Notes under the pieces: generated by a model
Seen by the model: only the letters and a program-made list of their open reading frames with translations
The model's database searches: none
What the model was told of the DNA's origin: nothing
Source of the DNA: Alphaproteobacteria bacterium
GTDB lineage: Bacteria; Pseudomonadota; Alphaproteobacteria; SHNJ01
Assembly: GCA_004295055.1 (NCBI GenBank)
Contig: SHNJ01000010.1
Location: forward strand, 2,136-66,135
Direction: 5' to 3'
DNA: 64,000 nt
Shown: piece after piece, positions 1 to 50,560 of the stretch
How positions within the stretch are numbered: the first letter of the stretch is position 1
Layout of the letters: each line of letters opens with the position of its first letter
Position numbers and translations under genes: made by a program

Positions 1-1294
1 GATTTCAACCAAAGGTACTTATTTCGTCGCACGCGACGCAAGCGGCGGCAATACCAACAAAGTTGATATCAATAACAGCGCCATCCGCATTCTGGCTGGC
101 GGCAACCCTGTTGTCGCTATGGGCAATAACGGCGTCATAGAAGCCGGCGCGGTCAATTCGCGCGGTAACGTAATGGGCGCTTATATGTATTCTTCCGGCA
201 ATGTCGATGCGGTTGGCAGTGTCAATTCCGGCAACGCCCGCATGTATGCAACGCCAGGCGCTGGTCAAACGGCTTATTTTTATAATAGCGCGCAAAACCA
301 ATCCAACCTGTCTTTCCAAACCAATGGTTATGTTTCTTTGAATGCCATATCGGGCCAAAGCGTTGGCATCAGCAACAATAACGTCTGGCCACCGGAATTT
401 GCGGTTGCGGCCAACCAAACCACTGTTCGCGGATCATTGGATATTCGCCGCTGGGAAAGAAGCGGCGGAAACGATACCTATCCAAACTATATGATGCGGA
501 TTATGGCTGCGAACAGCTCGGAGGTTATAGAAACAGCCCAACAATTCCCACAATATAATCGGGATAGTATTAATGTTAATAACTTATTCTACTTATATAA
601 TCCGATGCTTAGCAAACATGCTCGTCTTGGCGTAGAGAAAATTTATGCCTATGACGGAATTTCAACCAAACATGCCGGTATCGATATCAATTTCTTCCGT
701 ACCGATGCCGGGCATGAGCATGATTATATTCGCGGTTTCATGTTATACGCACAACCAACCGTGGCGGATGATCCAAACGGCAACTATTCCATCGAATTGA
801 AAGCCAACCGGACGACGCCAATGCATCCAAGCAATACTTTGGTCGTTCGCACCAGAGACGGCTTAGGTGACTTGCGTGTCGCTAACTTGGCCGTCACCGG
901 AAGTATTCAAGGTCCAGGAATGGCTGGCTCGGAATACAGTTCCGTCTCTTCTTTCAACCTATCAGGACCTGCAGGTGGTACAACCGCAAACAGAAATATA
1001 TCGATTGATAGCAGTGTTAAGTTTCTTGCTATCAATGCCGCTTGCAGCGTTTGGTTGAATGACAGTTCGAATGACTATGCTACCGTAACCGTTAATTTCA
1101 ACGCTGGCTATACTCGCAACATCACGGCTTGTAGTGTGGCAAAAAGCGAAAATATTTCGAACGGTACTTATCAAGTCGCAGATACTAAGTTCATTCCAGT
1201 ACCGGCGGGCGCAACATCAGCCACGATTACCATCCAAAGAAGCAGACAAGGTAATGGATACGCCGTGTCTGCCGAAGCCTGGGCGGTACGATAA
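1..1294 (+). CDS. Large repeat-domain surface or fibre-like protein, 5'-partial. The frame is open upstream of the first Met back to window position 2. It has one copy of the ~100-aa module (NNLFYLYN..GVEKIYAYDGISTKH.GIDINFF) that is also found in the next gene.
   Basis: Frame +2 is open from position 2 to the stop at 1294. It shares with ORF 1448-4330 the module NNLFY[LF]YN...HAR[LI]GVEK[IV]YAYDGI[AS]TKH.G[IV]DIN[FY]F...RGF.LYA...LRV.NL.VTG. A rho-independent terminator follows. Confidence 0.6.
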   Translation, partial: ISTKGTYFVARDASGGNTNKVDINNSAIRILAGGNPVVAMGNNGVIEAGAVNSRGNVMGAYMYSSGNVDAVGSVNSGNARMYATPGAGQTAYFYNSAQNQSNLSFQTNGYVSLNAISGQSVGISNNNVWPPEFAVAANQTTVRGSLDIRRWERSGGNDTYPNYMMRIMAANSSEVIETAQQFPQYNRDSINVNNLFYLYNPMLSKHARLGVEKIYAYDGISTKHAGIDINFFRTDAGHEHDYIRGFMLYAQPTVADDPNGNYSIELKANRTTPMHPSNTLVVRTRDGLGDLRVANLAVTGSIQGPGMAGSEYSSVSSFNLSGPAGGTTANRNISIDSSVKFLAINAACSVWLNDSSNDYATVTVNFNAGYTRNITACSVAKSENISNGTYQVADTKFIPVPAGATSATITIQRSRQGNGYAVSAEAWAVR

Positions 1295-1311
1295 TTTCCA
1301 TGCAACTAAGC

Positions 1312-1347
1312 TAGCCCGGCCATTTTGGCCGGGTTTTTTATTTTATT
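1312..1347 (+). terminator. Rho-independent terminator (cccggcc-atttt-ggccggg followed by a T-run).
   Basis: GC hairpin with stem cccggcc/ggccggg, immediately followed by ttttttatttt. Confidence 0.7.
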
Positions 1348-1447
1348 CTTATTCTAATCCAATCATTTCGGCCGGGTTTTTTTATAACTTTTTCCTTGAA
1401 AATAGTGCCCTAAAAAGATATACTTTGCCCCTAATAATAAAGTTAAC

Positions 1448-4330
1448 GTGATAGGGGCAGAAACTATGGTAAAATTACTACGCCGGGATTCAAAATCCCA
1501 GGCCGGATACATTATGGGCGCCGTTTTGGCGGCTGTTGTGGGAATTGGCATCGCCACCACCGTCATGATGACCACGGCCACTAATTCGGCAAAAATCTCT
1601 CAAACCATTACGGCGCGATCGATCACCAATTCGACCATGTCCGGCATTTCCAGCAGCCTGGCTAGAACCGGCCGCATCACCAACGGAAATATTTTGAATC
1701 CGCGCTATGCCGTTACAGATAGTGAAGGCCATACCCCACCTGGCGGCGGCGGTTACGTTCCAGCCGAATTCGGCAGCCAAGTCGATGGCACCGGCAACAA
1801 AATCATATATTGCGCCTTTCATAACGGACCAAACGCCCCGGAAGCGACCGATGGCGAAGAAGTTCCGCCAATTGTATTGCCGGGCAATAATCGCAATACC
1901 CGCGAAGAAATGCCGCGCGCGCCAGCCTATGTTTTAATTGCCCCAAAAGGCGCGCAAGATTTAACCTGCGACAATACGACAGTTACCGAAAATACCGCCT
2001 ATGGCACCTATACCCGTTTGAAAACGGACACTGAAATGCGTGAAGTTGCGGGCAACGACAGTTACAAAGCGGCGGATATCACCACTTTCATCAATGATAA
2101 CGGCCAGGGCGCAGCCAATTTGGTTGGCGGCGAAATTTGCGATTGGAGAACGCAGAAATTGATCTTCGATCGCCTGCCGGACGGCACCACGGAATTCAAC
2201 TGCGTGCCGGAACAAGACCCATTGGTCGAAGGCCGCACCGTTGGTTCGGCCGGCGATGCCGGCAATGTGCCGGCCAATACCGCCCGGGTTTTTAAAGAAA
2301 GCTATAAAGAACCGCATCGCCAAGACGCTTCGGATCCAGATTCGCCGATCAGCGAATTGCGTTTCCGTTCGATCGTGGCTGGCAACAATGTATCGGTTGT
2401 TCAAGACGGTGATAATATCCGTATCAGTTCAAGCGCATCGAGCGGCGGTACCATTACCGGCGGTCAAAACGTCGGCGCTGGCGCTGGCATTTACAAAGAC
2501 ACTACCGGTTCTTTGATGAATTTCCGCAGCTTGGTTTCGGGCGGCGGGATTATTATTCAACCTTTCGGCGATTCCGTTTTAATCACCAACACCGGATCGA
2601 CGGCGGATTTGAACGGAGCCAATATCGGCGATGGCACCGGCGCAGCCGTGGAAACACCATTGGCCGAAGTGTTCAAAGATAAAACCGTTGTCGGCAATAC
2701 CACCTATTTAAACTTCCGTAAAATCAAAGCCGCAGGCACGGTCAGCTTGCAACAACTGGGCACGGACACGATCCAAATCACCGGTTCGGCCATTCCTGGC
2801 CCACAAGGTCCGCAAGGCCCTCCCGGCTCGAACGGCCCACAAGGTCCTCCCGGCCCTCCTGGTCCGCAAGGCCCTCCTGGATCCGGCAGCTGGACTGTGG
2901 TTGGCGACAATCAATACAGCTCGAACGCCGGTAACGTCGGCATCGGCACCTCCACTCCCGGTCAAAAACTGACCGTTGCTGGAAATATCTATGCCGAAGG
3001 CAGCATTCGCGGATCTTATTTTGTACTGGCTTCGAATACCAATCCAACCCAGCATCGCATGGATATGTATCCTGTCAATCCGACGGGCGGCATCGAACAT
3101 GTGGAAACCCAGGATCCGTATGACAATAACAATGCGGCCAATACCAACAACTTGTTTTACTTTTACAACGTTGGTTTAGGCCGCCATGCGCGTATCGGCG
3201 TTGAAAAAGTCTATGCTTATGACGGTATCGCAACCAAGCACAATGGCGTCGATATCAACTATTTCAACGGCCATACTTTCCAGCGCGGGTTTAAATTATA
3301 CGCAACCACTACTGGAACGCAGGAAGGCAATTTCCGCTTGATGGCAAAAACCAGCCGCATGGGCGTATTGCATTCCGCCAATACTTTTGCGTTTACCACG
3401 CGGGGCGACAATAAATTCGCCGATATCCGCGTGGGCGCCGTTGGTATTATGGGCGATAACTGGAATCATCAAATGGCAATCATGCCGTTTGCGGGTGGCG
3501 AAGCGATTGAAACCGCTCCTGGCGGCAATCCAGCCATGAACAACAATAATTTGTTCTGGCTGTTTAACCAGCCGTTAGGCCGCCATGCGCGTTTGGGCGT
3601 AGAAAAACTTTATGCGTATGACGGTATCGCGACCAAGCATAATGGTGTCGATATCAACTATTTCCCAACCACTGGCGATACCAACCAGTTCCGCCGCGGT
3701 TTCCGCCTGTATGCGGTACCGGACAACGGTTCGTCGGATGGCGATTTCCGCATTGAATTGAAAGCGCCGCGTTATGGCCCAATGGATCAACGCAATACTG
3801 TTGCGTTGAAAACCAATGATGGCAATTACGCCGATCTGCGCGTTGGCAATTTGACCGTAACCGGTACGATCACCGGCGGCGGTGGTGGCGGTGGCGGCAG
3901 CAGCTTCCAAGGCGTTACCTTGGGCAGTGAAGTTGCCAATACTTTGACCCGCAACGATGGCGGTGGACAAGGTATTTATAACCAAACCAGCTCGACCAAC
4001 ATGCCAATCAAGCCAGGCGATGCAACCATGTTAAAAGTGACCGCACGCTGCTTTGCCGGCGCCAAAGGCGACAAACCGGCGAATCTTGCCGGTAAAATTT
4101 ACATGAAACGCGCTGATAACAGCGTAATCATGGAATTCGTGCCTTGCCGCGGTTTCTATGCCCCGGAACGGGATGGAACTATTGGTTTTGGCAGCGGCAG
4201 CAACGATGCCGAACCGCAAACCATGATGTACCCAATTCCGACCGCCACTTCCTATGTAACTTTGGAATCCAAAGTTTATTCGGCAAAATGGCAGGCGCAA
4301 GTGGATGTACGCGCTACTTATATGAAGTAA
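1448..4330 (+). CDS. 960-aa membrane-anchored repeat protein. It has an N-terminal TM helix, a collagen-like Gly-X-Y tract ([31 protein letters not shown]), two tandem copies of the ~100-aa [18 protein letters not shown] module, and a poly-Gly run. It is a paralogue of the upstream gene.
   Basis: Intact 2883-nt ORF. A single hydrophobic segment ([17 protein letters not shown]) lies near the N-terminus. The (GPX)n tract is at about nt 2795-2885. Module copies lie at aa ~560-650 and ~690-800. GGGGGGGG is at nt ~3880-3905. A strong terminator lies downstream. Confidence 0.7.
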
Positions 4331-4344
4331 GTGGCATTTATTTG

Positions 4345-4372
4345 AAAAACCCGGCTTCGGCCGGGTTTTTTA
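4345..4372 (+). terminator. Rho-independent terminator (cccggcttcggccggg followed by ttttttat).
   Basis: Perfect GC-rich hairpin followed by a T-run, 15 nt after the stop codon. Confidence 0.8.
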
Positions 4373-5846: not shown

Positions 5847-6755
5847 ATGACAATACCCAAAACAACGCTGTCGTTTTACCTACACATCGCCGTTGTCGCC
5901 GCAATTGTGTTTGCAATTGGTTCTTATTTTTTATCCTCCCAAAACGCGAACGGAACACACAACATATCGTCCAAAGAATCTACTTATGATCGCGTCATGC
6001 GTACCAAAACTTTGCGCTGTGGATTCGCCACATGGTATCCCAATATGGTAATCGATCCTAATACCGGCCAAAAATCCGGCAGTTCTTTCGATGTGATGAA
6101 TAAAATCGGCGAAATTTTGAATCTAAAAGTAGAATGGGCCCAAGAAGCCGGATTCGGCACCGCAGAACAAGATTTATTGAATGGGCGTTACGATGCCCTG
6201 TGCGCTGATGTTTGTTTTGAAGCTAAACGCACTAAATTTACTTATTTCTCCCGTCCTTTTGTTCAATCGCCGCTTTATATAATTGGCCGCAATGGCGACC
6301 ACAGATTCGATAACGATTGGTCTATTGCCAATAGCGGTGATATAAAAGCCGGCGTATTACGCAATACGATTTTAGAACACTTGGCTAATAGATTGGTTCC
6401 GAAAGCCACACAAGTCGACATTAGCGAATTGGGTGCCGACACCGATGTGATGCTGGCGTTAGCGGCCAAAAAAATCGATATTTCGTTTAACAATCTTATT
6501 TCGGTAGACCGATATAACGCCAAAAATCCCGGCAGTGCCAAAACCATCGGCAAGCCGGTAGGCACATGTTATTCAGGTTTCATGTTGCCGCATGGCGATC
6601 AGAAACTGAAGTATATGATTGATGGCGCCATTAATGAAATGATTGCCGAAGGATCGATTGCCCCGATTTATAAAAAGTATTTGCCGGACGATCCGCGATA
6701 TTGGCAAGTGCCGCAAGGGGATATGTTTTCTAAAAATGATTTTAATAATAAGTAG
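5847..6755 (+). CDS. Membrane-anchored periplasmic solute-binding protein, SBP_bac_3-like (amino-acid ABC type), lying between carA and carB.
   Basis: The N-terminal hydrophobic anchor is followed by a domain with SBP family-3 architecture (two lobes, motifs DAL.AD, ISELGADTD..LALAAKKID). Confidence 0.55.
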   Translation: MTIPKTTLSFYLHIAVVAAIVFAIGSYFLSSQNANGTHNISSKESTYDRVMRTKTLRCGFATWYPNMVIDPNTGQKSGSSFDVMNKIGEILNLKVEWAQEAGFGTAEQDLLNGRYDALCADVCFEAKRTKFTYFSRPFVQSPLYIIGRNGDHRFDNDWSIANSGDIKAGVLRNTILEHLANRLVPKATQVDISELGADTDVMLALAAKKIDISFNNLISVDRYNAKNPGSAKTIGKPVGTCYSGFMLPHGDQKLKYMIDGAINEMIAEGSIAPIYKKYLPDDPRYWQVPQGDMFSKNDFNNK

Positions 6756-10025: not shown

Positions 10026-11714
10026 TTAGCGCGACTTTTCATGCACAATATAGCGCGCGCTTAATTGAAGGCGGACGGGATTGTCATCGACTTTAAGCGG
10101 AAATATAAGGGCTATTCCCGCTTCAGCTTTGTTGCGATCAAAAACCCTTTGCTCATCCCTGGTTAAATCTGCGCGCAAGGCCTCTAACGGTTGTCTTGGA
10201 ACGCCCTTATATTCATAAGCTGCTGTGGTTAGCATATCAATGCGATTGCGAGTGGGAGAACCTTCGGCAAATTGATTGCCAGCATCCCTTAAAGCTTCTA
10301 CATAATATAGCCGCCAATCAAAGAATCCAACCACCGTTACTGGGTATGCCCGTTGAGGTTGTTTAAGCACGGGCGACACCAGGTCCTCGCCCGAATTTGT
10401 TGTCAATACATCCGCATATAGAGCTTTAGGAGATTGCTTAACTTGCGCCGATACTTTTTCATCCGTTGTTTTCTTAATATTTGCAAGATCTTTTGCAACG
10501 GCTTCTTGCTGTGAAAAATCTTCTCTATATTGTTGCACCGCAGGAACTACAAATTTCTGAAAAAGCGTTTTTGGCGTAATTGGACCGCTATTGCTCTCGG
10601 GCGATAAAAAATCCCTCAACAATTTCGCATCATTTTCCAACAATCGGGATAAAATCGCCGCTGAATCGTAACTTCGTTCTGATGGCTGTAGCACGCTAAG
10701 ATTAAGAAAATCGTTCCAAGTTGCTTCGGCTAAATATTCCCTGGCCTTTTGCAAATCGCGGCGCCATTCCTGCGAATCAGCGCCATGGTTTTGATATGAA
10801 ATCTGCAAAAACCGAGCCACTGCATATGTTTCGGCCCGTTGTTCCGATACATCATCCGATTTATTCTGGGCCGCAGTGCTGGTATTGCCTAAATAATCAT
10901 GACGATGGCCATCTTCGTGCAAAGCAACAAGAACGGAACGATCATAGTCTGTTAATTGCGGAACAAAATTATTGTAAAATACATGATCAACATAAGAATT
11001 TTTGTATTCTTGAACAGAAGTGTATCCAAGGGTGAATAAAGAATTATGCGGAGACAATACCGTGCTTGTATTCATCGCTTCCAGCCAACTGTAAACAATG
11101 CGATTTTCTTCCGCGCCGGTTACTTGATACAAAACGGATGCGTAACTTGTGGTGTTAGTTGTTTGGTTGGCTGCGCCATTCTGAACATCAACATGTATTC
11201 TTGGCCGCATATCCTGCATTAAGAAATAATCTTCGGTGGAGCGATAATCGGCAAAAACATAAACATAATTAGGTTGAACGTCTCTACGGGCGTCGCTAAG
11301 CGCTAGGCGTATATTTCTATAATCATCGGAATTACCGAAACGTAAATATTCCGGTATAAAAGAATCGCGGTAAATAACTGCTGTTGTCGCGCTATACCCC
11401 ACAAAAGCGACTTGATTTTCTTGCCGCAGGAATTCAACGAATTGCCGATCGGACGTTGATAACGATTGCGATCCAAGAATAACATGCGCTGCATTCTTGG
11501 ACGGTTCCGCAGGGGTCGGTTGTGGAGAATCCGCAATTACAGAATTTGACGGTTCAGCAACCGGTGCTGAAGATTGCGTTATGCTTGTCGATGAAGATAT
11601 GGCGATATCGGATAAAGGTTGCGCCGGTTTTTGGACAGCGGTGGCCAATGCCATTAGGCCCAGAGTCATGCCCCAAGCGTATGGAAAATTTGGCCTTTTT
11701 ACAGTTTTTTGCAT
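10026..11714 (-). CDS. Secreted 562-aa hypothetical protein with a signal peptide and an HEDGH (HExxH-like) motif. It may be a Zn-metallopeptidase-like protein.
   Basis: The N-terminus MQKTVKRPNFPYAWGMTLGLMALATA looks like a signal peptide. The motif ALHEDGHRHD lies in mid-protein. No other recognisable family was seen. Confidence 0.55.
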   Translation of the reverse strand: MQKTVKRPNFPYAWGMTLGLMALATAVQKPAQPLSDIAISSSTSITQSSAPVAEPSNSVIADSPQPTPAEPSKNAAHVILGSQSLSTSDRQFVEFLRQENQVAFVGYSATTAVIYRDSFIPEYLRFGNSDDYRNIRLALSDARRDVQPNYVYVFADYRSTEDYFLMQDMRPRIHVDVQNGAANQTTNTTSYASVLYQVTGAEENRIVYSWLEAMNTSTVLSPHNSLFTLGYTSVQEYKNSYVDHVFYNNFVPQLTDYDRSVLVALHEDGHRHDYLGNTSTAAQNKSDDVSEQRAETYAVARFLQISYQNHGADSQEWRRDLQKAREYLAEATWNDFLNLSVLQPSERSYDSAAILSRLLENDAKLLRDFLSPESNSGPITPKTLFQKFVVPAVQQYREDFSQQEAVAKDLANIKKTTDEKVSAQVKQSPKALYADVLTTNSGEDLVSPVLKQPQRAYPVTVVGFFDWRLYYVEALRDAGNQFAEGSPTRNRIDMLTTAAYEYKGVPRQPLEALRADLTRDEQRVFDRNKAEAGIALIFPLKVDDNPVRLQLSARYIVHEKSR

Positions 11715-12381: not shown

Positions 12382-13851
12382 TTACGCCACTAATTCTGCT
12401 TCTCTGGTTTTAGCTTTAGCTGCAACTCTGGCCGCGACATCCGAAATACGCGCATTCATGGGCGGCGGTAATGGCCTTGAGTCAACCTTGCTCATGGGAA
12501 CCAGGCCGTCAGGCATTCCCGGGGTTGCGTAAACAACGGGTTCGGAACCAATAGCGGCAATATTCGCAGGCACAGTTACAACACGCACTGTCACAGTCGG
12601 ATCACTAAATTCATTCTCAGAAGCCCGTATCGGTGTTGCGCGCTGTCTTGTTGGCGATGGCGGCGGGAGAATTGGAACCGCCTTAACCGCAGGCACAGAA
12701 GCTGCCACCGCCGCAGCCGGAACAGCTTTGCGGGTTGCGGCAACCGGCACAACCGCTTTTAATGGGGGTCTTTTTACACCAGTTAACTTATGGCTTAATG
12801 CCTCCGCCCATAATCGCTGATGATTTTCAACCGTGGATGGATGCAAAATTGAAACCGATTTTATAACTGGTTTTGGTTCGTCTTTTTTTGCTTTGGCTGT
12901 TCCTTGCGCAGTTGCTTTTTCTTCGGCGTGCGGTTTAATTCCGGCGATAGACTTAATTTCCAATTCCGATTGAAGATCGGCAATACCAGCCAATACCCGG
13001 TCTATTTCTTTTTCTACTTCACCGCCTTCTTTAACGTCTATCTGGCCCTTTCTCCACCGCATTAATGATGCGGCTATTTCCGTGTTCTTTGTGCATGCCT
13101 TGCCATACGCATGGGCAGCCGCCAACATAATCGCATTGTTCGGCGTATTGGTAATCGCAATCAATCGCATGAATCCGCATACGGCATAATTTTCAGCCGC
13201 TGGAAAATTGGCGCGATAAGCCTGCGCAATCTGTTCGTTTTCAAGAATCCGGTGACGCGATACGTATCCTAAAACAGTTAGGCCATTTTGAACAACGCAA
13301 CCGCTGCGGCATTCGCCTTCGGTGGTATTTTGCTTAAATTTATAGGGTGTTGTATACCTGGATGATTCCCCGCCGGCTTTACCATCTTGATTTTTTCCAT
13401 TTTGAGCCAAAAGCCATAATGGTCCGGTTCTTCTTTTTCCACGGACGGGTTTTTCTGTCCCGGCGGCCATGCCCATTATGGCGCGAATTTTTAAAATAGG
13501 AACCGTTAAAACATCTTCTACCGATCCGTCATTTTGCTCGGCTTTTTTCAATTCTCTGCCCGTTTCAGCAACAACAATATCCACGGCCTCGGTCAAACAT
13601 TGGTGAACGAAAATGGCTTTGGCGGATCGATTATAAAAATCAATATTAGATGGCTGGAACAAATTTCGTTTCTGCATATCGTCAATGACTTCTTTGGCCC
13701 ATCCCACAAGTTTGTCGGCATCGTCCATATTGCCGACCAAGCCCTTATTACCGCGAACTTCCGTACGATAACGGTGCAGACGTTGTTGCAAACCCTCAAA
13801 ATGACCCGATCGCATTAATGCGTCGCTACTCTTATTCATACCCATACCCAT
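12382..13851 (-). CDS. 489-aa hypothetical protein with a Pro/Ala/Val-rich C-terminal third. It looks effector-like and has no recognisable domain.
   Basis: Long intact ORF with coding-like composition. A C-terminal low-complexity tract (PPLKAVVPVAATRKAVPAAAVAASVPAVKAVPILPPPSP) is present. Confidence 0.5.
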   Translation of the reverse strand: MGMGMNKSSDALMRSGHFEGLQQRLHRYRTEVRGNKGLVGNMDDADKLVGWAKEVIDDMQKRNLFQPSNIDFYNRSAKAIFVHQCLTEAVDIVVAETGRELKKAEQNDGSVEDVLTVPILKIRAIMGMAAGTEKPVRGKRRTGPLWLLAQNGKNQDGKAGGESSRYTTPYKFKQNTTEGECRSGCVVQNGLTVLGYVSRHRILENEQIAQAYRANFPAAENYAVCGFMRLIAITNTPNNAIMLAAAHAYGKACTKNTEIAASLMRWRKGQIDVKEGGEVEKEIDRVLAGIADLQSELEIKSIAGIKPHAEEKATAQGTAKAKKDEPKPVIKSVSILHPSTVENHQRLWAEALSHKLTGVKRPPLKAVVPVAATRKAVPAAAVAASVPAVKAVPILPPPSPTRQRATPIRASENEFSDPTVTVRVVTVPANIAAIGSEPVVYATPGMPDGLVPMSKVDSRPLPPPMNARISDVAARVAAKAKTREAELVA

Positions 13852-14083
13852 ATATTTTATTGTTTCTGTAAAGGTTATAACATATTGTTACTGTTTTGTG
13901 AAATCTAATATACGTCACTCAGTACAAAAAATTGATGATAAAATCAATATAATTCAATATGTTACATACAATTGAATTTTGGGCTGTTTTATTTCGCCAA
14001 AATAGCGGCCTTTAAAATATCTGAAAAAGAACTGTACAGATCCAGATCATAAAGTTAAGATTTGGAACAAAGGGTACATAATA

Positions 14084-14794
14084 ATGGACAGCAGAGAAAA
14101 GGGTCACAATCCAAGAACCGTCTTTCTTACCTTAAAAGGAAAAGCGTTATCCCCTACCCATTACTTTCCACACCTAAAAGATTCTGTCAGCCTTAACAGT
14201 CTGTCATCGGCCCTGCATACTTGGCGGCAAATGATAACGGATCAATATGACAGGGCTGGATTGCCGGCCGAACTGACAGAAAGATGCCAAAGATTTTATT
14301 TCTTCAGCCCAAAAGAAGTTTTCAACCAAATAAGGCCGGGAATATTCCATGCGGTGGGATTGGACGAAAATTTATTGATCGAAGTGGCTTATCAAGCCGC
14401 CGATAAAAAATCCCAGCGCCAAGTTTGGCATGAAATCTATGCCAAAGCAGCGGCGAAAGTTTTGATACAAAAAGTTCAAGGCGCGGTTATTCCGGTTGTA
14501 GTTTATGGATATGAAGAATACGCGCAACAATGCCTGCCATCCATGCCCGGTCCGGGGGATTGGGCCAATTTCGGTCAGGATTGGTTGCAATTAGACGATT
14601 TAATCCGGCAAAATGGCGATCCAGCCGCGTTCCGGGCATTGACCGAATTTCGAGAAACAATCAAAAGCGCCGGCTGCCGATTGGTGATTATCACCCATAT
14701 GGCTGTTGATACCCCGCCCAGAAACGGCGTTACAATGGCCAGCACCAGTTGGAGTCTAGGCCCATATGCCAGACAAGTAATTCAGATTGAATAA
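14084..14794 (+). CDS. 236-aa hypothetical protein.
   Basis: Intact ORF followed by a perfect hairpin terminator. No family was recognised. Confidence 0.45.
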   Translation: MDSREKGHNPRTVFLTLKGKALSPTHYFPHLKDSVSLNSLSSALHTWRQMITDQYDRAGLPAELTERCQRFYFFSPKEVFNQIRPGIFHAVGLDENLLIEVAYQAADKKSQRQVWHEIYAKAAAKVLIQKVQGAVIPVVVYGYEEYAQQCLPSMPGPGDWANFGQDWLQLDDLIRQNGDPAAFRALTEFRETIKSAGCRLVIITHMAVDTPPRNGVTMASTSWSLGPYARQVIQIE

Positions 14795-14828
14795 ATAAAA
14801 AAGGCGCCGGAAGGCGCCTTTGATATTC
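14795..14828. terminator. Bidirectional rho-independent terminator (ggcgcc-ggaa-ggcgcc flanked by A and T runs) between convergent genes.
   Basis: The sequence is aaaaaaggcgccggaaggcgcctttga. It can serve the + gene ending at 14794 and the minus-strand lrp ending at 14843. Confidence 0.7.
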
Positions 14829-14842
14829 GATTCACAAAACCG

Positions 14843-15337
14843 TTACGCGGCTTTGGAAAAATCTTCTTCATCCACCGGCACGCCCGGAGCATATTTGCTG
14901 GTGCGTACGCACAACATCGACTTAACGTTGGCAACACCCGGAGCGGATGTCAGTTGGGTTGTCAAAAACCGCTGATAGTCATCCCAGTTATGGGCAACGA
15001 TTTTCAAGATAAAATCGGTTTCGCCAGCCATCATGTGGCATTCGCGAACCATTGGCCAGCTGTTGATGCGGGATTCAAACGATTTCAAATCGCCTTCCGA
15101 CTGGCTGGCAAGACCAACCAAGGCAAATACGCATACGCCGTAATTTAACGCTTCGGCCGAAAGATCGGCGTGATAACCTTTGATATAACCGGATTCTTCC
15201 AGGGCGCGAACGCGGCGCAAACACGGCGGCGCGGAAATACCGGCACGTTCGGCCAATTCAACATTGGTCATACGGCCATTGCCCTGCAAATCGCGCAAAA
15301 TTTGGCGATCAATTTTATCTAACTTAATTCTCTTCAT
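14843..15337 (-). CDS. lrp: Lrp/AsnC family transcriptional regulator.
   Basis: An N-terminal HTH (LDKIDRQILRDLQGNGRMTNVELAERAGISAPPCLRRVRALEESGYI) is followed by a RAM/AsnC C-terminal domain. Confidence 0.9.
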   Translation of the reverse strand: MKRIKLDKIDRQILRDLQGNGRMTNVELAERAGISAPPCLRRVRALEESGYIKGYHADLSAEALNYGVCVFALVGLASQSEGDLKSFESRINSWPMVRECHMMAGETDFILKIVAHNWDDYQRFLTTQLTSAPGVANVKSMLCVRTSKYAPGVPVDEEDFSKAA

Positions 15338-15577
15338 AAATGACTCCCAACAAGAAGGATTGCAATGTTATGTTGACACCGCAATTTTTAAACTATTATT
15401 GTTCTCTACCTGATTGATTGAATTACCCACTTCTAAATCAGCAAATTCCATAAGATTTTTATAGGATAAGTCTGATTTTTGAACGGATGTTGCTTTGTTT
15501 TAAACAGATTTACTTGCCTTCGCAAGTAGAAAATTCTAAAAAAAGGCATAGTTTATATACAAGAATAACAAAGGTTA

Positions 15578-16564
15578 ATGAACATGACGGCGGCTAAAAA
15601 ACCTCTAAAACATTCAAAACTATTGATTATTGGCGGTGGCCCTGCGGGGTACACAGCGGCAATCTATGCGGCGCGCGCAGCCCTCGGGCCAGTTTTAGTC
15701 ACGGGTCTTCAACCAGGCGGCCAATTGATGACCACAACCGATGTAGAAAATTATCCCGGCTTTGCCCACGCCGTACAGGGTCCGCAATTGATGGAACAAA
15801 TGTACGAACAGGCCAAAAATGTCGGCACTGAAATTATTACCGACCATATCGCCAGCGTCGATTTTAAATCAAAGCCCTTTACCGCCCACGGAGACGAACA
15901 TACCTATACTGCGGACGCCGTGATCATTTGCACGGGCGCTCAGGCCAAATGGCTGGGCATAGAATCGGAAATGCATTTCCGCGGTTACGGCGTTTCGGGC
16001 TGCGCCACATGTGACGGATTCTTTTTCAAAAATAAAACCGTGGCTATTGTCGGCGGCGGCAACACCGCCATGGAAGAGGCGTTATATCTGACCCACCACG
16101 CCAAGGAAGTAATCATGATTCACCGCCGGGATCAATTCCGCGGCGAGAAAATTTTACAACAACGCATCGCGCAAAATCCAAAAATTAAAGTAATTTGGAA
16201 CAGCGCCGTCGATGCCGTTTTAGGCACAGATAATCCAAAGTCGGTGAATGGATTGACGTTGGTAGACAACAAAACCGGCAAAAAGCAAAATGTTGCCGTC
16301 GATGGATTATTCGTTGCCATCGGCCATGCGCCAGCAACCGAATTATTCAAAGGCCAAATCGATCTGGATAATGACGGGTATATTAAAACGGCTCCCGGTA
16401 CCGTAAAAACCAATATTCCAGGCGTCTACGCCGCCGGCGATGTTATCGATAAAATCTATCGCCAGGCTGTGACCGCCGCCGGTCTTGGATGCATGGCGGC
16501 GCTGGATGCCGAAAAATATCTAAGCCATCAATCGCAAACAACGGTGCCCGCCGCCGCGGAATAG
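15578..16564 (+). CDS. trxB: Thioredoxin-disulfide reductase.
   Basis: FAD-binding GGGPAGYTAA, redox-active CATCDGFF (CxxC) and NADPH-binding GGGNTAMEEA motifs are present. Confidence 0.92.
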   Translation: MNMTAAKKPLKHSKLLIIGGGPAGYTAAIYAARAALGPVLVTGLQPGGQLMTTTDVENYPGFAHAVQGPQLMEQMYEQAKNVGTEIITDHIASVDFKSKPFTAHGDEHTYTADAVIICTGAQAKWLGIESEMHFRGYGVSGCATCDGFFFKNKTVAIVGGGNTAMEEALYLTHHAKEVIMIHRRDQFRGEKILQQRIAQNPKIKVIWNSAVDAVLGTDNPKSVNGLTLVDNKTGKKQNVAVDGLFVAIGHAPATELFKGQIDLDNDGYIKTAPGTVKTNIPGVYAAGDVIDKIYRQAVTAAGLGCMAALDAEKYLSHQSQTTVPAAAE

Positions 16565-17747: not shown

Positions 17748-18602
17748 ATGCCTCGTCCGGCTCCTCGCGAACAACAAATTTTTAGCGCTTTACGCGAAAC
17801 TTCTTCAACGGATGCTGATCGCGCCAACAAAATTTTCGGGATAATCAAAAGAGACCCTTTACCGCTCAAAACATTTTTTCAAAAAACGGTTTGCAGAGAA
17901 AGCGGAATATCAGAGCAAGAGAGAGAAATTTTATGTTCTGCTATATTGCTATATGTGGAATATATCGGTTCTTTTCCACTTGGCCATACCAGTGCGCCTA
18001 AATATGGCCTGCGCATAGAATCGGACCGTCCAGTGCAAACTGCATCATGGGCGGTAATAGCCCTGCGCAATTCCGAAAAGCAGGAACAGCAGATAAAAGC
18101 AGCACAGATTATTTTGGCGGGCGCAGAAAAGCTGATAGCACCCGTTGCACCAAACACCCCGATCACAACCGATACTCTTAATTTAAAATTGGCAATGAGC
18201 CTTTATTTAGCGGTCACAAATAATACTCCGCCAGAAGAACAATATTATTATTTAGGCATACATAATTTCCGGCGGGTGGCAGAAACCATGTTACAGCAAA
18301 GCCGCACGGATTTCGCCACGACTATGGTTGAATTAAGCCATGGTTGCGATAACAATCCAGCGGCACTGGAATTGGCGACTGAATATTTGCAACGCGCGGT
18401 TCATCACATCATCACAGGAAATCCAGAAACGGCATTGGGTATTATTCCCCAATTACGCGACCGCAATCAAGCGATGCGGCATGAAAGAACATCTTTCCGC
18501 ACCCCACCATCGGATAGTATAGATTTGCAATTAAGCGCTTTAGAAATGTTGGCAACCGCTGTTGTGCAGCACCGGCAGGCTGCAAGCCGTACACCGCGTT
18601 AA
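17748..18602 (+). CDS. 284-aa hypothetical protein.
   Basis: Intact ORF with an RBS-like aggggtt 8 nt upstream. No family was recognised. Confidence 0.5.
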   Translation: MPRPAPREQQIFSALRETSSTDADRANKIFGIIKRDPLPLKTFFQKTVCRESGISEQEREILCSAILLYVEYIGSFPLGHTSAPKYGLRIESDRPVQTASWAVIALRNSEKQEQQIKAAQIILAGAEKLIAPVAPNTPITTDTLNLKLAMSLYLAVTNNTPPEEQYYYLGIHNFRRVAETMLQQSRTDFATTMVELSHGCDNNPAALELATEYLQRAVHHIITGNPETALGIIPQLRDRNQAMRHERTSFRTPPSDSIDLQLSALEMLATAVVQHRQAASRTPR

Positions 18603-19801
18603 GGCACGCAATTCTGATTAACAGGTTTAGGGCCTTGTTTAATCATGCGTTCAATAGCGGGGATAGTTTTCTTACCATAAATATTAAGGCCGCGATCCTT
18701 AGCGACATCAATGTTCTGCATTAATTTATCGGATTCCACATAATCGCTGGATTCTTCATCCATATAGGCCAAGCCAGCTTCTAAAATAGCTTCGTTTAAA
18801 ACAAATCCATCATCTATTTTACCGGGCTGAAAATCGGTGGCTTTGACTTGGTCTTTTAACAAACAGAAATTGGCTTCGTTAATTTGAACATAGGCTTCAA
18901 GCATGCCATCGGCAGAAAATAAATTCGATCCATAAAATAATTGCGGGCGGACCATTTCGGTGCAATTGCAATTTTCAAATGGATAACCGCGCGTTGCCGC
19001 CAAAGCCCTGATAAATTTAATACCGCGCTGTTTCTGGTCTTCAGTCAAGATTTTCCCTTCGCCGCCTTTTAATGAAACGCCGCGCAAACGCACCGATAAA
19101 CGATACGGTTCCGGCACCAGAACTTCGACTTCGATGACGTTTACATCTTTAACATCGACAATACGCACCCAGCCCGGCAATTCCCCATAAGTTTGCAGGA
19201 ATTTTTTCAGTAACAATTCATCGTTATCGCCGCTTTCTGTCGTTTCATTCTGAAACGATAGCGACGCCAACATCCAAGCATAAGACCAGTCGATACTGTT
19301 ATTGGCGGCATCGGCATATAATTTATTAAAATAATCGACGAACAATTCAATGCCGACGCCAGCATAAGTTTCGCCAATATTCATCCGCCGGTCTAAAATG
19401 CCAGCGCGGATATTGCCGGCTTCCTGCCCTTCTAAATACGAAGTTTGGCCTGCCGATGTTTGTCCAATATCGAACCCTTGCAACATAATTTTTCGTTCGG
19501 AATCGGAAAGGGAATTCCAATAAGTGCCGAATTTCGGTTTGTCGCCGCACAATGATTCCGGCAATGTGCACACATCTTGCGACAAAGGCGCTTTTGTTTC
19601 AGCAATTTGATTCCCGCCGGATTTCGCATTTTCTTCGGCCTTTGCTTCGACGGACTTTTTTTCAGCCGCAGCAGGATTTTCGGTTTGCGCAAAAACCAAT
19701 GTGGGGAAATATCCTAAAAACAGGACAACAATAAGAAGAACTATAATCTTACGGGATAGGGTAAAGGAAACGGGCATACTCTCTTTATAGCGGCAATCCA
19801 T
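18599..19801 (-). CDS. 400-aa secreted hypothetical protein with a signal peptide and an acidic, Lys-rich N-terminal region.
   Basis: IVLLIVVLFLGYFPTLVFAQT is signal-peptide-like. Intact ORF. No family was recognised. Confidence 0.5.
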   Translation of the reverse strand: MDCRYKESMPVSFTLSRKIIVLLIVVLFLGYFPTLVFAQTENPAAAEKKSVEAKAEENAKSGGNQIAETKAPLSQDVCTLPESLCGDKPKFGTYWNSLSDSERKIMLQGFDIGQTSAGQTSYLEGQEAGNIRAGILDRRMNIGETYAGVGIELFVDYFNKLYADAANNSIDWSYAWMLASLSFQNETTESGDNDELLLKKFLQTYGELPGWVRIVDVKDVNVIEVEVLVPEPYRLSVRLRGVSLKGGEGKILTEDQKQRGIKFIRALAATRGYPFENCNCTEMVRPQLFYGSNLFSADGMLEAYVQINEANFCLLKDQVKATDFQPGKIDDGFVLNEAILEAGLAYMDEESSDYVESDKLMQNIDVAKDRGLNIYGKKTIPAIERMIKQGPKPVNQNCVP

Positions 19802-21338: not shown

Positions 21339-22097
21339 ATGTCCGTTTCTTATCTATCACTTGGCGCAAAAAGTATGGAAGCCACCCCCTGGCGCAAAGA
21401 CGCGCAAATTCTGCAAGGTAAAATTACTGCCACTGCCGGTGAAGCCGTTAAAGCCGACGAAATCGTATTAAGCGGCCGCGCCAAAGTATTATTGGCTGGC
21501 AACGCCACCCCAATCAAACCAAATTTAGATATTCCTGTTTGTTATGGCCCAAAACCAAAATTATCGAGCGTTGACGCAACCAGATTGGCTGGAAGCGACG
21601 ACATTCCGGTTTGCTACGGTCCAAAAATAGACGCCAAAGCCGATAAACTCGACGGCACATTCGTAGAGCTGGATCCAAAAAAAGCCAAACCTATCGATGG
21701 TGCAACCAAAGGCAATGACGTGATACCTCCACCACGGACCCGTCAAGAAGCGTGGGCTGATGGTTGGAGAAATTTAGGAGCCGCTACTAAACGATTAATG
21801 GAATTAGTGGACATGGCAAAAAATCCTGGCCTTAGTACCGTGGAACGCGCGAAATTAAACGAAGAGTTTAAATCCATTGTCACCCAAGTGGATCAATACG
21901 CTCAATCACTAGTGGAAGAACAAGGTTTGACCGGTGGAGACGCTCAAATTTGGCGCAATTCCGTTGGATCAAGAGAGCTATTTATTGATGGCAATGATAA
22001 CTTATTGAGCGCCGAAGGCGTGCAAACTTTGTCAGACAAGTTAACCAAACGCTCTGAAGTGGTATTCCGTACTATGCAATATTTAGGCGTTGCATAA
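21339..22097 (+). CDS. 252-aa hypothetical protein with an internal duplicated motif (DIPVCYGPKPKL / DIPVCYGPKIDAK).
   Basis: Intact ORF followed by a strong terminator. The repeat is visible directly in the translation. Confidence 0.45.
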   Translation: MSVSYLSLGAKSMEATPWRKDAQILQGKITATAGEAVKADEIVLSGRAKVLLAGNATPIKPNLDIPVCYGPKPKLSSVDATRLAGSDDIPVCYGPKIDAKADKLDGTFVELDPKKAKPIDGATKGNDVIPPPRTRQEAWADGWRNLGAATKRLMELVDMAKNPGLSTVERAKLNEEFKSIVTQVDQYAQSLVEEQGLTGGDAQIWRNSVGSRELFIDGNDNLLSAEGVQTLSDKLTKRSEVVFRTMQYLGVA

Positions 22098-23488: not shown

Positions 23489-24646
23489 TTAATTTGCTTT
23501 GCTCTTATATAGCGAATACGCCCAATCCAACCAAGGCAATAATTTCTGGATATCGCCGGTTTCCACCATCCCGCCGGCCCATAAGCGGATATTGGGCGGC
23601 GCTTCTTTATGACCCATAATATCGGTAGCCACTTTTTCGGCCATTAATGTATCGGCAATGGAACGGCAAATAGCCCTGGCCTGTTCATCCGGCAGTTCGC
23701 GGTAGCCGGGTTCGATAATTTTTAGACAAACCGAGGTTCGCGACCTGGCGGAAGGCTCTTCGGCTAAAAAATCCGCCCATGGCGTTTTTTCCACCCATTG
23801 ATCGATTGCGGCGAAATTATTCTGGCTGCGCCGGGTCATGGCATCAAGTCCGCCATTCGTTTCGATCCATTTTAATGCATCCAAACAATCTTCGATACAT
23901 AACATCGATGGGGTGTTAATGGTCGATCCATTCCAAACATCTTCATTTACTTTGCCATTTTTTAACAAACGAAATAGGCGCGGCATCGGCCAAGGCGGAT
24001 TCGATTGTGCCAAGCGTTCCATAGCGCGTGGCGAACAGATAATAACTCCATGCGCCCCCTCGCCGCCCAAAACTTTTTGGAAAGAATAAGTGGTTACATC
24101 CAGCAAATCCCACGGCAAGTCATAGGCAAAAGCGGCCGAAGTAGCATCGCAAATAGTCAATCCGCCGCGGTCTGGCGATATCCAATCGGAATTGGGAACG
24201 CAAACGCCAGTGGTGGTGCCATTCCAACAAAAAATCACATCATGCGCAAAATCGATTTCATGCAAATTGGGCAATTGCCCGACCGGCGCGGTTAACACGC
24301 GCGAATTTTTTATTTTTAATTCGGTCATTACATCATGCCGCCATAAATCGCCGAAATGATCGAACACTACCGCATCGACCGGACGCGATCCGCACAAGGA
24401 CCACATCGCCATTTCCATCGCGCCCGTATCCGACCCAGGCGTTAGCGCAATTTTATAATCCGCCGGAATTTTCAGAATTCGCCTGGTACGATCCAGCAAA
24501 TCCCTAATACGTGCCATCGAATCCGCGCTGCGGTGCGAACGGGCAACCAAAGCATTATTCAATACCGACGGCGTCCACCCCGGCCGTTTAGCCGATGGAC
24601 CGGAACCGAAATTAATATTTTTGGGTTTTTGATTGGGTTTTGACAT
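23489..24646 (-). CDS. serC: Phosphoserine aminotransferase, of the short alphaproteobacterial/archaeal type.
   Basis: 385 aa, class-V aminotransferase fold. The N-terminus NFGSGPSAKRPGW and the overall similarity to the short SerC family are present. Confidence 0.85.
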   Translation of the reverse strand: MSKPNQKPKNINFGSGPSAKRPGWTPSVLNNALVARSHRSADSMARIRDLLDRTRRILKIPADYKIALTPGSDTGAMEMAMWSLCGSRPVDAVVFDHFGDLWRHDVMTELKIKNSRVLTAPVGQLPNLHEIDFAHDVIFCWNGTTTGVCVPNSDWISPDRGGLTICDATSAAFAYDLPWDLLDVTTYSFQKVLGGEGAHGVIICSPRAMERLAQSNPPWPMPRLFRLLKNGKVNEDVWNGSTINTPSMLCIEDCLDALKWIETNGGLDAMTRRSQNNFAAIDQWVEKTPWADFLAEEPSARSRTSVCLKIIEPGYRELPDEQARAICRSIADTLMAEKVATDIMGHKEAPPNIRLWAGGMVETGDIQKLLPWLDWAYSLYKSKAN

Positions 24647-24794
24647 AAGATTATTTCGTTCGATATAGCCACTTTGCCGTAATATAAGCCCAAATCAAGG
24701 GTTATTTTTTATTATAAATCAACAATTTAATTATATTGACATAAGTATTCTTTAAGGATATTATCGACACGCAATTAACAGGAAAAGCTTATTT

Positions 24795-26270
24795 ATGAGC
24801 AATTTAAACCAGGTTACACTTTCGAATCTCGCGGAAAACATCATGCCACTGGTCCGCGCCCAGTATCTTGGTCGAATGACTTATCAAAAAATTCGCTCCT
24901 TACAAACGCTGGTTGATCAGTTCTTTACCCTAGAACATTGCCCAGAAACCAAAGCTCAATTGGAGCCGTTACGCGAGTCTAAGAAAATTACCGCTGCTTT
25001 GTTATTGCAAGCCGTTCTAACGGCCAGAGAAGAAATGAAGCGCGCTCAAGGCAAGGCGCCTGAAATAAGAAATACGGTTTCCAGTGTTATTGGCTCGCAA
25101 CCAGATCTGGTAGATTTCTGCACTGAGCAGGCACGGAAGGTTTCAACTATTGATGTTGATAACCCATTAAACCGCGCCCTTTTGGTGGCAAGCGCACTAT
25201 TATCCGATAAACAGCTAAAAGAAGCACATACTAAATGTACTTTGGGTTCACAGACCAAAGTGCCGGACTATGATGCTGAACTGGCAATAGAAGAAGCAAG
25301 ATTAAAAAAATTAGAAGAATCCAAACCTTGGTCTTACGGTATCAAGGGAATTGCCAGACGTATTAGGAATTCTTTGGATACTGGTTATTTTTTTAAATCG
25401 TTGTTATTGGACGATCCCTTTTCCGATATTCAGCAAAAAATTAACTTGCAGCAAAGTGTGGTTAAACACGCCCAAGAAAAAGTAGCGAAAAAAGCCGAGT
25501 TAGCGGCCGCGATTGAAAAACAAAATCAAGCAAACGATTCGGCTTCAAAAATTTTTGGCCAGCTATTTGCCAACCGCATGCATAAAAAAGCTCAAACAGA
25601 AGCTAAGCGCCGATTGCCGCCAGACTCGGCAAGGCCTATCGACCAGCCCACGGCTTTGGCGTTAGTACGCCTAGAATCCGACATGCCGGAAGTTAAACTG
25701 GCCTTTGATGAGATTGTTACCGGTAAAAAACAGCTATCGCCAGCCGATATGTTTAAATATTTGCGGAACATTAAACAGCTGGCTTCATCCAGCGAGCACG
25801 CATCAATTTTAAATCAAATGCAATTATGGATTGTACAATCTATTGATCAGGGATTACTAGATACCTATGCCCAGGCGATGGCTACAGAAAAACAAGCTTT
25901 ACAAGACAGCATCCAAGCACATAAAAATGACTTAAAGTCGTTCGAAACTCGTTCCACAATTGGTTATGCGATATCAGAAATAATCCGGGGCAATAGACGT
26001 AGCGCCGAACAACGCACGTACGAGCGCCGGGCGATATTGGAAACCAGCAATTACATTAAAGTTTTAGAAAATGGACCGGCTACAGTGGAAATGAATGCCA
26101 TAGCGGATTTATTTACAACTGAAGTCCAAAGACGCGCTTCGACTGGAACGCCATACATATTCCATCCCGCCAATAATGCAGCGCCAAGGAAATCCAGAAC
26201 GGCAAGGAAAATTTCTCACCATCCTAGCGTTCTTCAAAGAATATTTGCAACGGCTTGTAAAGTTATTTAA
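24795..26270 (+). CDS. 491-aa predicted alpha-helical hypothetical protein (effector-like).
   Basis: Intact ORF rich in charged and Gln residues. No domain was recognised. Confidence 0.45.
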   Translation: MSNLNQVTLSNLAENIMPLVRAQYLGRMTYQKIRSLQTLVDQFFTLEHCPETKAQLEPLRESKKITAALLLQAVLTAREEMKRAQGKAPEIRNTVSSVIGSQPDLVDFCTEQARKVSTIDVDNPLNRALLVASALLSDKQLKEAHTKCTLGSQTKVPDYDAELAIEEARLKKLEESKPWSYGIKGIARRIRNSLDTGYFFKSLLLDDPFSDIQQKINLQQSVVKHAQEKVAKKAELAAAIEKQNQANDSASKIFGQLFANRMHKKAQTEAKRRLPPDSARPIDQPTALALVRLESDMPEVKLAFDEIVTGKKQLSPADMFKYLRNIKQLASSSEHASILNQMQLWIVQSIDQGLLDTYAQAMATEKQALQDSIQAHKNDLKSFETRSTIGYAISEIIRGNRRSAEQRTYERRAILETSNYIKVLENGPATVEMNAIADLFTTEVQRRASTGTPYIFHPANNAAPRKSRTARKISHHPSVLQRIFATACKVI

Positions 26271-36285: not shown

Positions 36286-36326
36286 GCTATTTCGGTTTTA
36301 TGGTAAAAAATGATATAGTGCCGGAC

Positions 36327-50485: not shown

Positions 50486-50560
50486 GCTGCCGTAGCTCAG
50501 TGGTAGAGCACCATCTTGGTAAGGTGGGGGTCGGAAGTTCAATCCTTCTCGGCAGCACCA
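50486..50560 (+). tRNA. tRNA-Thr (anticodon GGT), 75 nt including the encoded CCA.
   Basis: Cloverleaf: acceptor stem GCTGCCG/CGGCAGC, D-arm GCTC-AGTGGTA-GAGC, anticodon arm CCATC-TTGGTAA-GGTGG, T-arm CGGAA-GTTCAAT-CCTTC (4 bp with one mismatch), then CCA. Confidence 0.88.

Follow-up and report, generated by a model that had tools for sequence, protein, structure and literature searches.

A probable family of mosaic adhesive fibre proteins, with a conserved ∼135-aa module, in one alphaproteobacterial lineage

The first 4372 nucleotides of the window, as we call the whole 64,000-nucleotide stretch of alphaproteobacterial DNA analysed here, carry two neighbouring, related genes, A and B, and the question that they raise is what kind of protein they encode and whether it serves the cell or a phage. 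An earlier note had described them as encoding giant proteins built from a module of no recognisable family, and had likened their architecture to that of phage tail fibres or collagen-like adhesins. Our preferred answer, to which we give a probability of roughly 0.6, is that A and B belong to a lineage-restricted family of adhesive fibres, mosaic in build, probably homotrimeric and of the phage-tail-fibre type, and that the closest characterised relatives of this family are the MAT fibres of Bdellovibrio. The features on which this answer draws are collected in Table 1.

Table 1. Features of genes A and B and their control signals (window coordinates)
Feature	Position	Strand	Details
Gene A, 3′ part only	2..1294	+	ORF and translation: 430 aa visible plus stop codon (1292–1294)
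Gene A module, single copy	467..925	+	HMM E 1.5e-71
Gene A C-terminal tip, type 3	926..1291	+	∼122 aa, 2 conserved Cys
Gene A intrinsic terminator	1313..1345	+	Stem 1313–1335, 10 bp with 7 GC pairs, then T-run
Promoter-like site, gene B	1396..1424	+	TTGAAA-17-TATACT; 10/12 consensus match, no proof of function
Gene B ribosome-binding site	1452–1456	+	AGGGG
Gene B	1466..4330	+	954 aa (P0001) from ATG 1466; mechanical ORF 960 aa from GTG 1448
Gene B family-defining N-terminal domain	1466..2236	+	∼255 aa: predicted 56-residue helix, alpha/beta domain, 4 invariant Cys, APAyvliSpGKNG motif
Gene B leader	1466..1570	+	Basic, ends at invariant Gly (GTG-numbered G20), then Tyr and ∼21 mostly hydrophobic residues; from 11-paralogue alignments
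Gene B, three ∼55-aa repeats	2300..2782	+	..vFKd....L.FR.l..G......GD.I.I..; present also in A-type paralogues
Gene B collagen-like tract	2798..2887	+	10 uninterrupted G-X-Y triplets, residues 451–480
Gene B beta-helix unit, one	2888..3040	+	SW..G.N.Y...GNVGIGT..P..KL.V.G, motif at residue 495
Gene B module copy 1	3041..3445	+	HMM E 1.2e-64
Gene B module copy 2	3446..3874	+	HMM E 3.9e-72
Gene B Gly8 linker	3875..3898	+	Residues 810–817
Gene B C-terminal tip, type 1	3899..4327	+	∼140 aa, 2 Cys, predicted beta-sandwich
Gene B intrinsic terminator	4345..4371	+	AAAAA CCCGGC TTCG GCCGGG TTTTTT; hairpin and T-run 4350–4371

Gene A is the orthologue of L001_1490, the first fibre gene of locus L001 (1490 aa), and its full-length product is probably ∼1500 aa, the 5′ end of the gene lying beyond the window edge. 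On a near-identical contig (L005) it encodes 1022 aa, with 58% identity to L001_1490 and 42% to L001_1343; this BLAST comparison ruled out the latter as the orthologue.

What ties A to B is a common module, reported earlier as occurring once in A and twice in B. That count, and the quoted core, were confirmed by BLASTP, by alignment and by an HMM scan, which returned exactly one and two copies. Residues 162–348 of A aligned with 673–868 of B (E = 3.6e-37) and residues 158–332 with 539–700 (E = 5.9e-29). Across the three copies 51 columns are invariant, including the core NNLF...HAR.GVEK.YAYDGI.TKH.G.DIN.F...RGF.LYA...RV, and many of the invariant residues are polar (His, Arg, Lys, Tyr, Asp and Asn among them). 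The unit is, however, ∼135 aa long (its period in B is 135) rather than ∼100 aa, and the proteins are not built from it: they are mosaics, mostly of fibre elements seen elsewhere, with one or two module copies that account for ∼28% of B and, in A-type proteins of full length, for roughly 10%. Within B, constraint is strongest on the module, for which dN/dS against the 84%-identical orthologue is 0.025 in copy 1 and 0.07 in copy 2, compared with 0.10 for the whole gene.

The module's place outside known families was borne out by the absence of any match in Pfam, PHROGs or PDB sequences, no consistent family emerging from Pfam or PHROGs for any copy at E values up to 10. When 1.84 billion representative proteins were searched with a profile, only 10 module matches came back, of which 8 were members of the same small family. 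The weak matches P0077 and P0078 were rejected as module relatives; these are Ig-like repeat surface proteins whose 9–15 short matching stretches we judged spurious and compositional. Judged from these sequence searches, the module essentially does not occur beyond this lineage, a restriction that the earlier note had proposed to test; within the lineage its conservation is strong. A library-wide search did pick up a diverged form of the module core ahead of a Peptidase_S74 domain in paralogues (E = 1e-8 and 5e-6). In a monomer AlphaFold model of B residues 667–960, made from a 10-sequence alignment, the module had a pLDDT of 30–50 and was unusable, and the tip alone could be interpreted.

Around the module the paralogues follow one order: an N-terminal domain of ∼250 aa, the ∼55-aa repeats, a collagen tract or GNVGIGT beta-helix, the module, and finally a tip or Peptidase_S74. 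The collagen-like tract of B is as first described, real but short: it scores 21.3 against Pfam Collagen (PF01391), under the cut-off of 27.2, five orthologues retain 9–11 G-X-Y triplets in which X and Y vary, and it matches PHROG tail-fibre families (phrog_10972, E = 2e-6). A beta-helix unit after the collagen tract is also found in many Collagen+S74 proteins, and the GNVGIGT unit is repeated in A-type proteins, where it matches Bd2133. The poly-Gly8 linker of B is likewise present.

At least three types of tip occur in the family, and the three were mutually unrelated in hhalign comparisons. The type 3 tip of A (winA) is conserved in L001_1490, L001_1343, P0072 and L009_732. The C-terminal domain of B, whose Cys content had been pointed out before and comes to two residues, was modelled by AlphaFold as a beta-sandwich; the model is similar to carbohydrate-binding domains, to receptor-binding domains of phages and to the tip domains of Bdellovibrio fibres, and resembles XepA, YomS and lambda J. 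Peptidase_S74, an intramolecular chaperone of tail fibres, absent from both A and B by Pfam and present solely in paralogues from related genomes, forms the C-terminus of L007_1169, L011_1517 and L011_760 (E ∼1e-16 to 1e-17), with SD.RLK motifs and matches to PDB entries 6f45, 3gw6 and 3gud. Read from their alignments, the family proteins are mosaics with a breakpoint at the module end. B (winB) and P0004 are homologous over residues 9–810 and differ in their tips, the homology stopping exactly where module copy 2 ends, while P0004 and P0006 have the N-terminal part and the tip in common and differ in the shaft.

The resemblance to phage tail fibres and collagen adhesins thus fits, given Peptidase_S74 in syntenic paralogues, a gene A shaft similar to MAT structures and a B tip that models as a beta-sandwich. 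In the bacterial collagen-like surface proteins Bacillus BclA, Streptococcus Scl1/Scl2 and Legionella Lcl, globular domains that trimerise lie on either side of a short Gly-X-Y triple helix, and BclA carries a C-terminal beta-sandwich head. Gene B has a comparable short segment and a predicted tip like the BclA head, but its 10 triplets contribute little to the shaft, it is anchored differently, and beyond the triplets the sequences are not similar.

A closer parallel is provided by the mosaic adhesive trimeric (MAT) fibres of Bdellovibrio bacteriovorus (Bd2133, Bd2439, Bd1334 and Bd3182), first described in 2024 as prey-recognition devices; these are trimers of ∼1000 aa that keep one invariant N-domain, swap their tips and fall into S74 and non-S74 subfamilies, and they include the structures 8OND (Bd2133), 8OL4 (Bd2439) and 8OML (Bd1334) (Caulton et al. 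2024, PMC10769870). In phmmer searches against the PDB, the shaft of L001_1343 matched 8OND (E = 3.5e-6), 8OL4 (7e-4) and 8OML (0.05), and the upstream part of gene A from the same strain (L005), a stretch that lies upstream of the window, matched 8OND with E = 3e-8. Gene B alone, with its one beta-helix unit, gave no MAT fibre match in the PDB. Like the MATs, the family is chromosomal and non-phage, with paralogues of ∼800–1500 aa, one invariant N-terminal domain, a shaft whose GN(V/L)G(I/L)GT..P..L.V beta-helix repeat is a direct sequence match, subfamilies in which the C-terminal S74 chaperone/protease (SDxxxK) is either present or absent, and small beta-sandwich tips exchanged between otherwise homologous fibres. 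It differs in that only two to three paralogues sit in one locus of an alphaproteobacterium, and that gene B adds a collagen tract. The module is presumably absent from Bdellovibrio, since it was not found outside the lineage among the 1.84 billion representatives. The N-domains also differ: compared by description only, that of the MATs is beta-rich, ∼130 aa long and follows a cleaved signal peptide (PMC10769870), whereas that of the present family spans ∼250 aa and combines a hydrophobic tract that looks uncleaved with a predicted 56-residue helix and an alpha/beta part that contains Cys.

A fibre of this kind would work as follows. The conserved N-terminal domain would hold each chain at the cell, and three chains would zip into a shaft of ∼55-aa repeats, collagen triple helix and/or GNVGIGT beta-helix repeats. 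The module would form a distal neck carrying an exchangeable tip of ∼120–140 aa (the S74 chaperone instead in some paralogues), which would bind a ligand on some other surface or cell. Several binding specificities could then be available to the cell from its two or three tandem paralogues, whose tips differ, and the conserved module may double as a recombination junction for tip swaps. We infer trimer formation purely from the logic of the collagen and S74 elements; surface display, adhesion, contact with a host or prey and the nature of the target are likewise inferred.

How such a fibre is anchored is the point at which the strongest rival enters. The earlier note had assigned B an N-terminal membrane anchor; the N-terminus is indeed hydrophobic, but instead of a plain TM helix it is the start of the conserved ∼250-aa domain, common to all paralogues and with pilin-like features. 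In 11/11 paralogues a leader of 11–27 aa ends at an invariant Gly, followed by F/Y and ∼21 hydrophobic residues, so that all 11 agree with the leader of a class III signal peptide, which is hydrophilic, ends in Gly or Ala and precedes ∼21 predominantly hydrophobic residues (PMC8179133). A cleaved Sec signal peptide is less likely, as the hydrophobic tract is ∼21 residues long, the predicted helix continues to 56 residues and positions −3/−1 are inconsistent. Modular type IV pilins (Streptococcus sanguinis PilB/PilC; GspK; Raynaud et al. 2021, PMC8179133) likewise have a leader ending in Gly before ∼21 hydrophobic residues, and a large functional part joined on at the C-terminal side; their ∼50-residue alpha-1 helix, packed on an antiparallel beta-sheet, may have a counterpart in the predicted helix and alpha/beta domain of the family. 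Glu5 is absent from the paralogues (A, Y, S, G or T stands at position 5), as it is from tip pseudopilins such as GspK (PMC8179133). The N_methyl motif (IPR012902) gave no PF07963 or TIGR02532 match even at E values up to 1–10, no prepilin peptidase or filament assembly gene was seen among the scanned window ORFs, and a metagenome scan with a narrower N-domain alignment re-found known contigs only.

That the N-domain derives its form from type IV pilins, as a divergent pilin-like module, with the fibre presented by a type IV filament or a type II secretion-like machine, is a serious possibility that we put somewhat short of even odds. The fuller claim makes the proteins modular type IV (pseudo)pilins outright: the N-domain, a true pilin module, would be cleaved behind the invariant Gly and would cap a type IV pilus or a type II secretion pseudopilus, carrying the fibre outward. 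This appears rather unlikely; it overlaps the preferred reading and differs from it solely in the mechanism of anchoring or export. Equally speculative is a novel mode of displaying phage-type trimeric fibres, in which a divergent, Glu5-less pilin-like module fused to collagen, beta-helix or S74 fibres would let a type IV filament or secretion machine display them, and the ∼135-aa module would adopt a trimeric fold not seen before, acting as universal adaptor or binding head for the swappable tips.

The genomic setting bears on whether the fibres belong to a phage. The order dnaG-yqeY, two to three fibre genes, carA-carB-greA is kept in at least six related metagenome-assembled genomes, no phage structural, lysis or integrase gene stands beside the fibre genes at any locus examined, and 2.9 million viral contigs (IMG/VR) held no relative of the module or N-domain. 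Orthologues of gene B at 84%, 60% and 52% identity are all intact, and dN/dS for the gene is ∼0.1, indicating purifying selection; for these reasons A and B are not pseudogenes, the alternative that the earlier note had left to be checked. A prophage occupies 51–64 kb of the same window, 46 kb from the fibre genes, and contains no family member.

That a prophage, a tailocin or a gene-transfer agent, whether intact or recently reduced to a remnant, has A and B as its tail fibres is in our view quite improbable; the proteins would then bind the bacterium's own kind as receptors and would not be cellular adhesins. The S74 chaperone of the paralogues, the phrog_10972 match, the predicted likeness of the B tip to XepA, YomS and lambda J and the prophage in the same window all speak for such an origin. 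S74-bearing phage tail fibres and tailspikes (endosialidase K1F, the T5 L-shaped fibre, T4-like long tail fibre tips) share that domain with the paralogues, collagen-like phage fibres (the PHROG tail-fibre families) share Gly-X-Y tracts, and phage fibres of both sorts show the mosaic evolution by tip exchange seen in the family. Unlike phage tail fibres, however, the window genes lack S74 and any virion-attachment context, their neighbours are always dnaG, yqeY, carA, carB and greA, and B proteins 44–84% identical across genomes have been kept at the locus under purifying selection. Every paralogue, moreover, has the basic leader and a 21-residue hydrophobic tract, which is not normal for virion-attached fibres, and the prophage is distant and without a family member. 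Descent from a domesticated phage fibre, as had been suggested, holds in a distant evolutionary sense only.

About as doubtful is a functional head, ligand-binding or catalytic and depolymerase-like, in place of a structural neck, with the C-terminal tips as accessory caps replacing the S74 chaperone: the strong constraint on the module, its invariant polar residues, the MAT Bd2133 beta-sandwich said to stand in for that chaperone (PMC10769870) and the diverged core directly before the SD.RLK cleavage site, which would make it the distal end after autoproteolysis, favour this role, but the module resembles no enzyme or lectin family, its two tandem copies in B are more typical of shaft elements, and the C-terminal domains, which vary and are swapped, act as receptor-binding tips classically do.

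If the preferred reading, a family of cellular adhesive fibres, is right, the design principle of the MATs (an invariant N-domain, a mosaic and putatively trimeric shaft, S74 or swapped tips) recurs in an unrelated, uncultured alphaproteobacterium, with a different N-terminal domain whose type IV pilin outline points to a route of anchoring or export that can be tested. For structure determination the 135-aa module is a good choice, and it may serve as a portable junction for engineering fibre tips. Were the lineage predatory or host-associated, A and B would be obvious candidates for contact specificity.

Direct reading of the sequence confirmed two neighbouring plus-strand genes, each with its own terminator as first noted; that of gene B had been missed by a simple terminator scan. 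The 960-aa ORF of gene B exists, but ATG 1466 is a likelier start than GTG 1448, because AGGGG lies 9 nt upstream of it and its position is common to the orthologues, and 954 aa is accordingly the likelier product.

Genes A and B, the neighbouring fibre-like genes at the start of the window, share a repeat module (BLASTP of A against B, E = 3.6e-37 and 5.9e-29), and 51 columns are invariant when the three copies of A and B are aligned. By HMM, the six-frame translation of the window holds one copy in A, two in B and no others. These were the counts in the earlier note, which put the unit at ~100 aa; its length is instead ~135 aa, beginning near '..H.M.I.P...E.(I/V)ET' and ending at '[10 protein letters not shown]'. 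A profile of 10 module copies, searched with no prefilter against 1.84 billion representative proteins (E <= 1e-3), returned 10 proteins: five strong matches, three weaker ones (one fragment and two paralogues of the Peptidase_S74 chaperone type with a diverged core) and two judged spurious. The module had no Pfam or PHROGs match, either within the whole proteins or as single copies at E up to 10, the profile matched no PDB sequence, and the module was absent from 2.9 million viral contigs. Because of these results, calling the module previously unseen is fair at the level of sequence, and none of the families described in Pfam, PHROGs or the PDB sequences accounts for it. When AlphaFold modelled the module as a monomer from a shallow alignment, its pLDDT was 30-50.

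Each gene has, as first proposed, its own clear intrinsic terminator at the 3' end. The 960-aa ORF of gene B is present from its GTG, although ATG 1466, giving 954 aa, is the likelier start, with AGGGG 9 nt before it and the position shared by orthologues. A half-terminator motif, GGCCGGG plus a T-run, occurs three times; the middle copy has no clear 5' arm and falls after the terminator of gene A and ahead of the promoter-like site of gene B.

Features of the window, with positions in window coordinates
Feature	Position	Strand	Remark
Gene A	2-1294	+	3' 1.3 kb only; ORF and translation
Terminator, gene A	1313-1335 plus T-run	+	intrinsic
GGCCGGG + T-run	1328-1339, 1370-1384, 4360-4371		
Promoter-like site	1396-1424	+	
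Gene B	ORF from GTG 1448	+	complete, within first 4.4 kb; ORF and translation
Terminator, gene B	4350-4371	+	intrinsic
SBP_bac_3 gene	5847-6755		302 aa
ORFs without Pfam match	10026-11714, 12382-13851, 14084-14794, 17748-19801, 21339-22097, 23489-26270, 36147-37448, 40295-41940, 44336-46174		
Prophage	50486-63874		
tRNA-Thr	50486-50560	+	
Endolysin, GH108 + PG_binding_3	51420-52004	-	prophage
Amidase	55036-56547	-	prophage
Tail/SU10 adaptor protein	56558-57271	-	prophage
Major head protein	59931-60905	-	prophage; E 2e-130
Portal	62237-63874	-	prophage; E 7e-184

To describe the proteins as built from the repeat was an overstatement, since one or two copies stand beside other elements; judged by their sequences, they are mosaics not made from the module alone. 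The near-identical contig L005 lengthens gene A to 1022 aa, and shows it to be orthologous to the 1490-aa first gene of the related locus L001, at 58% identity. All paralogues begin with an N-terminal domain of ~250 aa (28-82% identity, four invariant Cys), after which come ~55-aa repeats. Next, the A-type has repeats of two kinds, the Cys-containing 'DPVF..RP..AC' and 'GNVGIGT..P..KL.V.G', and the B-type a collagen tract of 10 triplets with one GNVGIGT unit. One or two modules follow, and the C-terminal end is either Peptidase_S74 (E about 1e-16 to 1e-17), a chaperone of the intramolecular kind, or a tip of ~120-140 aa. The tips are of three types, none related to another (hhalign probability <= 1.7%). 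Domain exchange can be seen directly: homology between B and the related protein P0004 runs over residues 9-810, beyond which their tips differ, whilst P0004 and P0006 have an N-part (41%) and a tip (58%) in common on unrelated shafts. In A-type fibres (L001 1133-5605; L005 1-3069) a Cys-pair unit, 'E(T/S)DP(V/I)F.A.RP..AC......(K/T)W(N/D)G..F.C', is repeated 2-3 times, and there are long low-complexity linkers of poly-Gly/Ala-Pro. In L005, a ~170-aa insert between a Gly run and the GNVGIGT region is unlike its L001 counterpart.

The GNVGIGT region of the A-type, which in gene A lies upstream of the window, matches solved Bdellovibrio fibres by plain phmmer: Bd2133 (8OND; E = 3.5e-6 and 3e-8), Bd2439 (8OL4; 7e-4) and Bd1334 (8OML; 0.05). 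These proteins were defined as mosaic adhesive trimeric (MAT) fibres: trimers of ~1000 aa that the predator displays to recognise its prey, in which the N-domain is invariant, tips are swapped and subfamilies exist with and without S74; further tip domains may serve other bacteria (Caulton et al. 2024, PMC10769870). The shaft matches, together with S74 in the paralogues, bear out the earlier fibre and tail-fibre-like reading, and by sequence A and B are placed among the MAT/tail-fibre-like mosaic adhesins, to which the 135-aa module and a pilin-like N-domain are new.

We put at roughly 60% the probability that A and B encode adhesive fibres that are homotrimeric and carried by the cell itself. 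On this reading the conserved N-domain would hold the fibre at the envelope, the module and the collagen or beta-helix elements would make up its shaft and neck, and ligand binding would fall to the variable tips. Paralogues could widen the range of specificity, and tips may be exchanged through recombination at the conserved module boundary.

In every paralogue a basic leader of 11-27 aa, whose terminal Gly is the only invariant residue of the leader region, is followed by F or Y and ~21 hydrophobic residues. The AlphaFold model, with pLDDT 84-94 for residues 50-210, has one 56-residue helix leading into an alpha/beta domain of seven strands. The proposed membrane anchor survives as a hydrophobic tract, but one that belongs to a ~250-aa domain and is more than a transmembrane helix. 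Leader, tract, long helix and modelled domain resemble the type IV pilin outline (PMC8179133), and a variant of the main reading, in which the proteins are true modular pilins displayed by a type IV filament, is conceivable but unlikely. The domain lacks the pilin motif and Glu5. Prophage or tailocin fibres are more doubtful still: the S74 ends match chaperones of phage fibres and endosialidase, but such an origin is contradicted by the conservation and context of the locus, by the lack of relatives in the 2.9 million viral contigs and by a hydrophobic N-terminus. That the module itself is a binding or catalytic head is similarly improbable.

The fibre-like genes occupy a syntenic chromosomal locus, in which two or three large paralogous genes stand between dnaG-yqeY and carA-carB-greA, on contigs from metagenomes or uncultured Alphaproteobacteria MAGs. 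Relatives of B beyond the collagen tract form only six clusters among 5.8 billion proteins, all of which map to this locus. Orthologues are all intact and dN/dS over the whole of B is 0.10 against an 84%-identical orthologue, which argues against the pseudogenes that the earlier note had considered; from these comparisons the genes appear real and functional. The lowest values in B, 0.025 and 0.07, are those of its two modules. The Gly-X-Y register is held at 9-11 triplets among orthologues, with X and Y varying.

Downstream of gene B lie carA, the SBP_bac_3 gene, carB and greA. The SBP_bac_3 gene, for a periplasmic solute-binding protein, is inserted between carA and carB here and in L005 and L008, and is absent in L001 and L009. 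L008, which bears P0006, has a set like a diversity-generating retroelement (13255-15914) between greA and an asnC-type regulator, comprising a reverse transcriptase (RVT_1, 376 aa), bAvd (119 aa) and a 230-aa ORF; the set is missing from the same position in the window and L001.

Elsewhere in the window, an unusually large share of the ORFs of ~240-610 aa lacks any Pfam match; these stand among ordinary housekeeping genes and are read as a lineage-specific gene pool. The prophage, which contains no member of the fibre family, adjoins tRNA-Thr; its - strand also encodes virion structural proteins, and GC falls to 0.37 at 50-52 kb.
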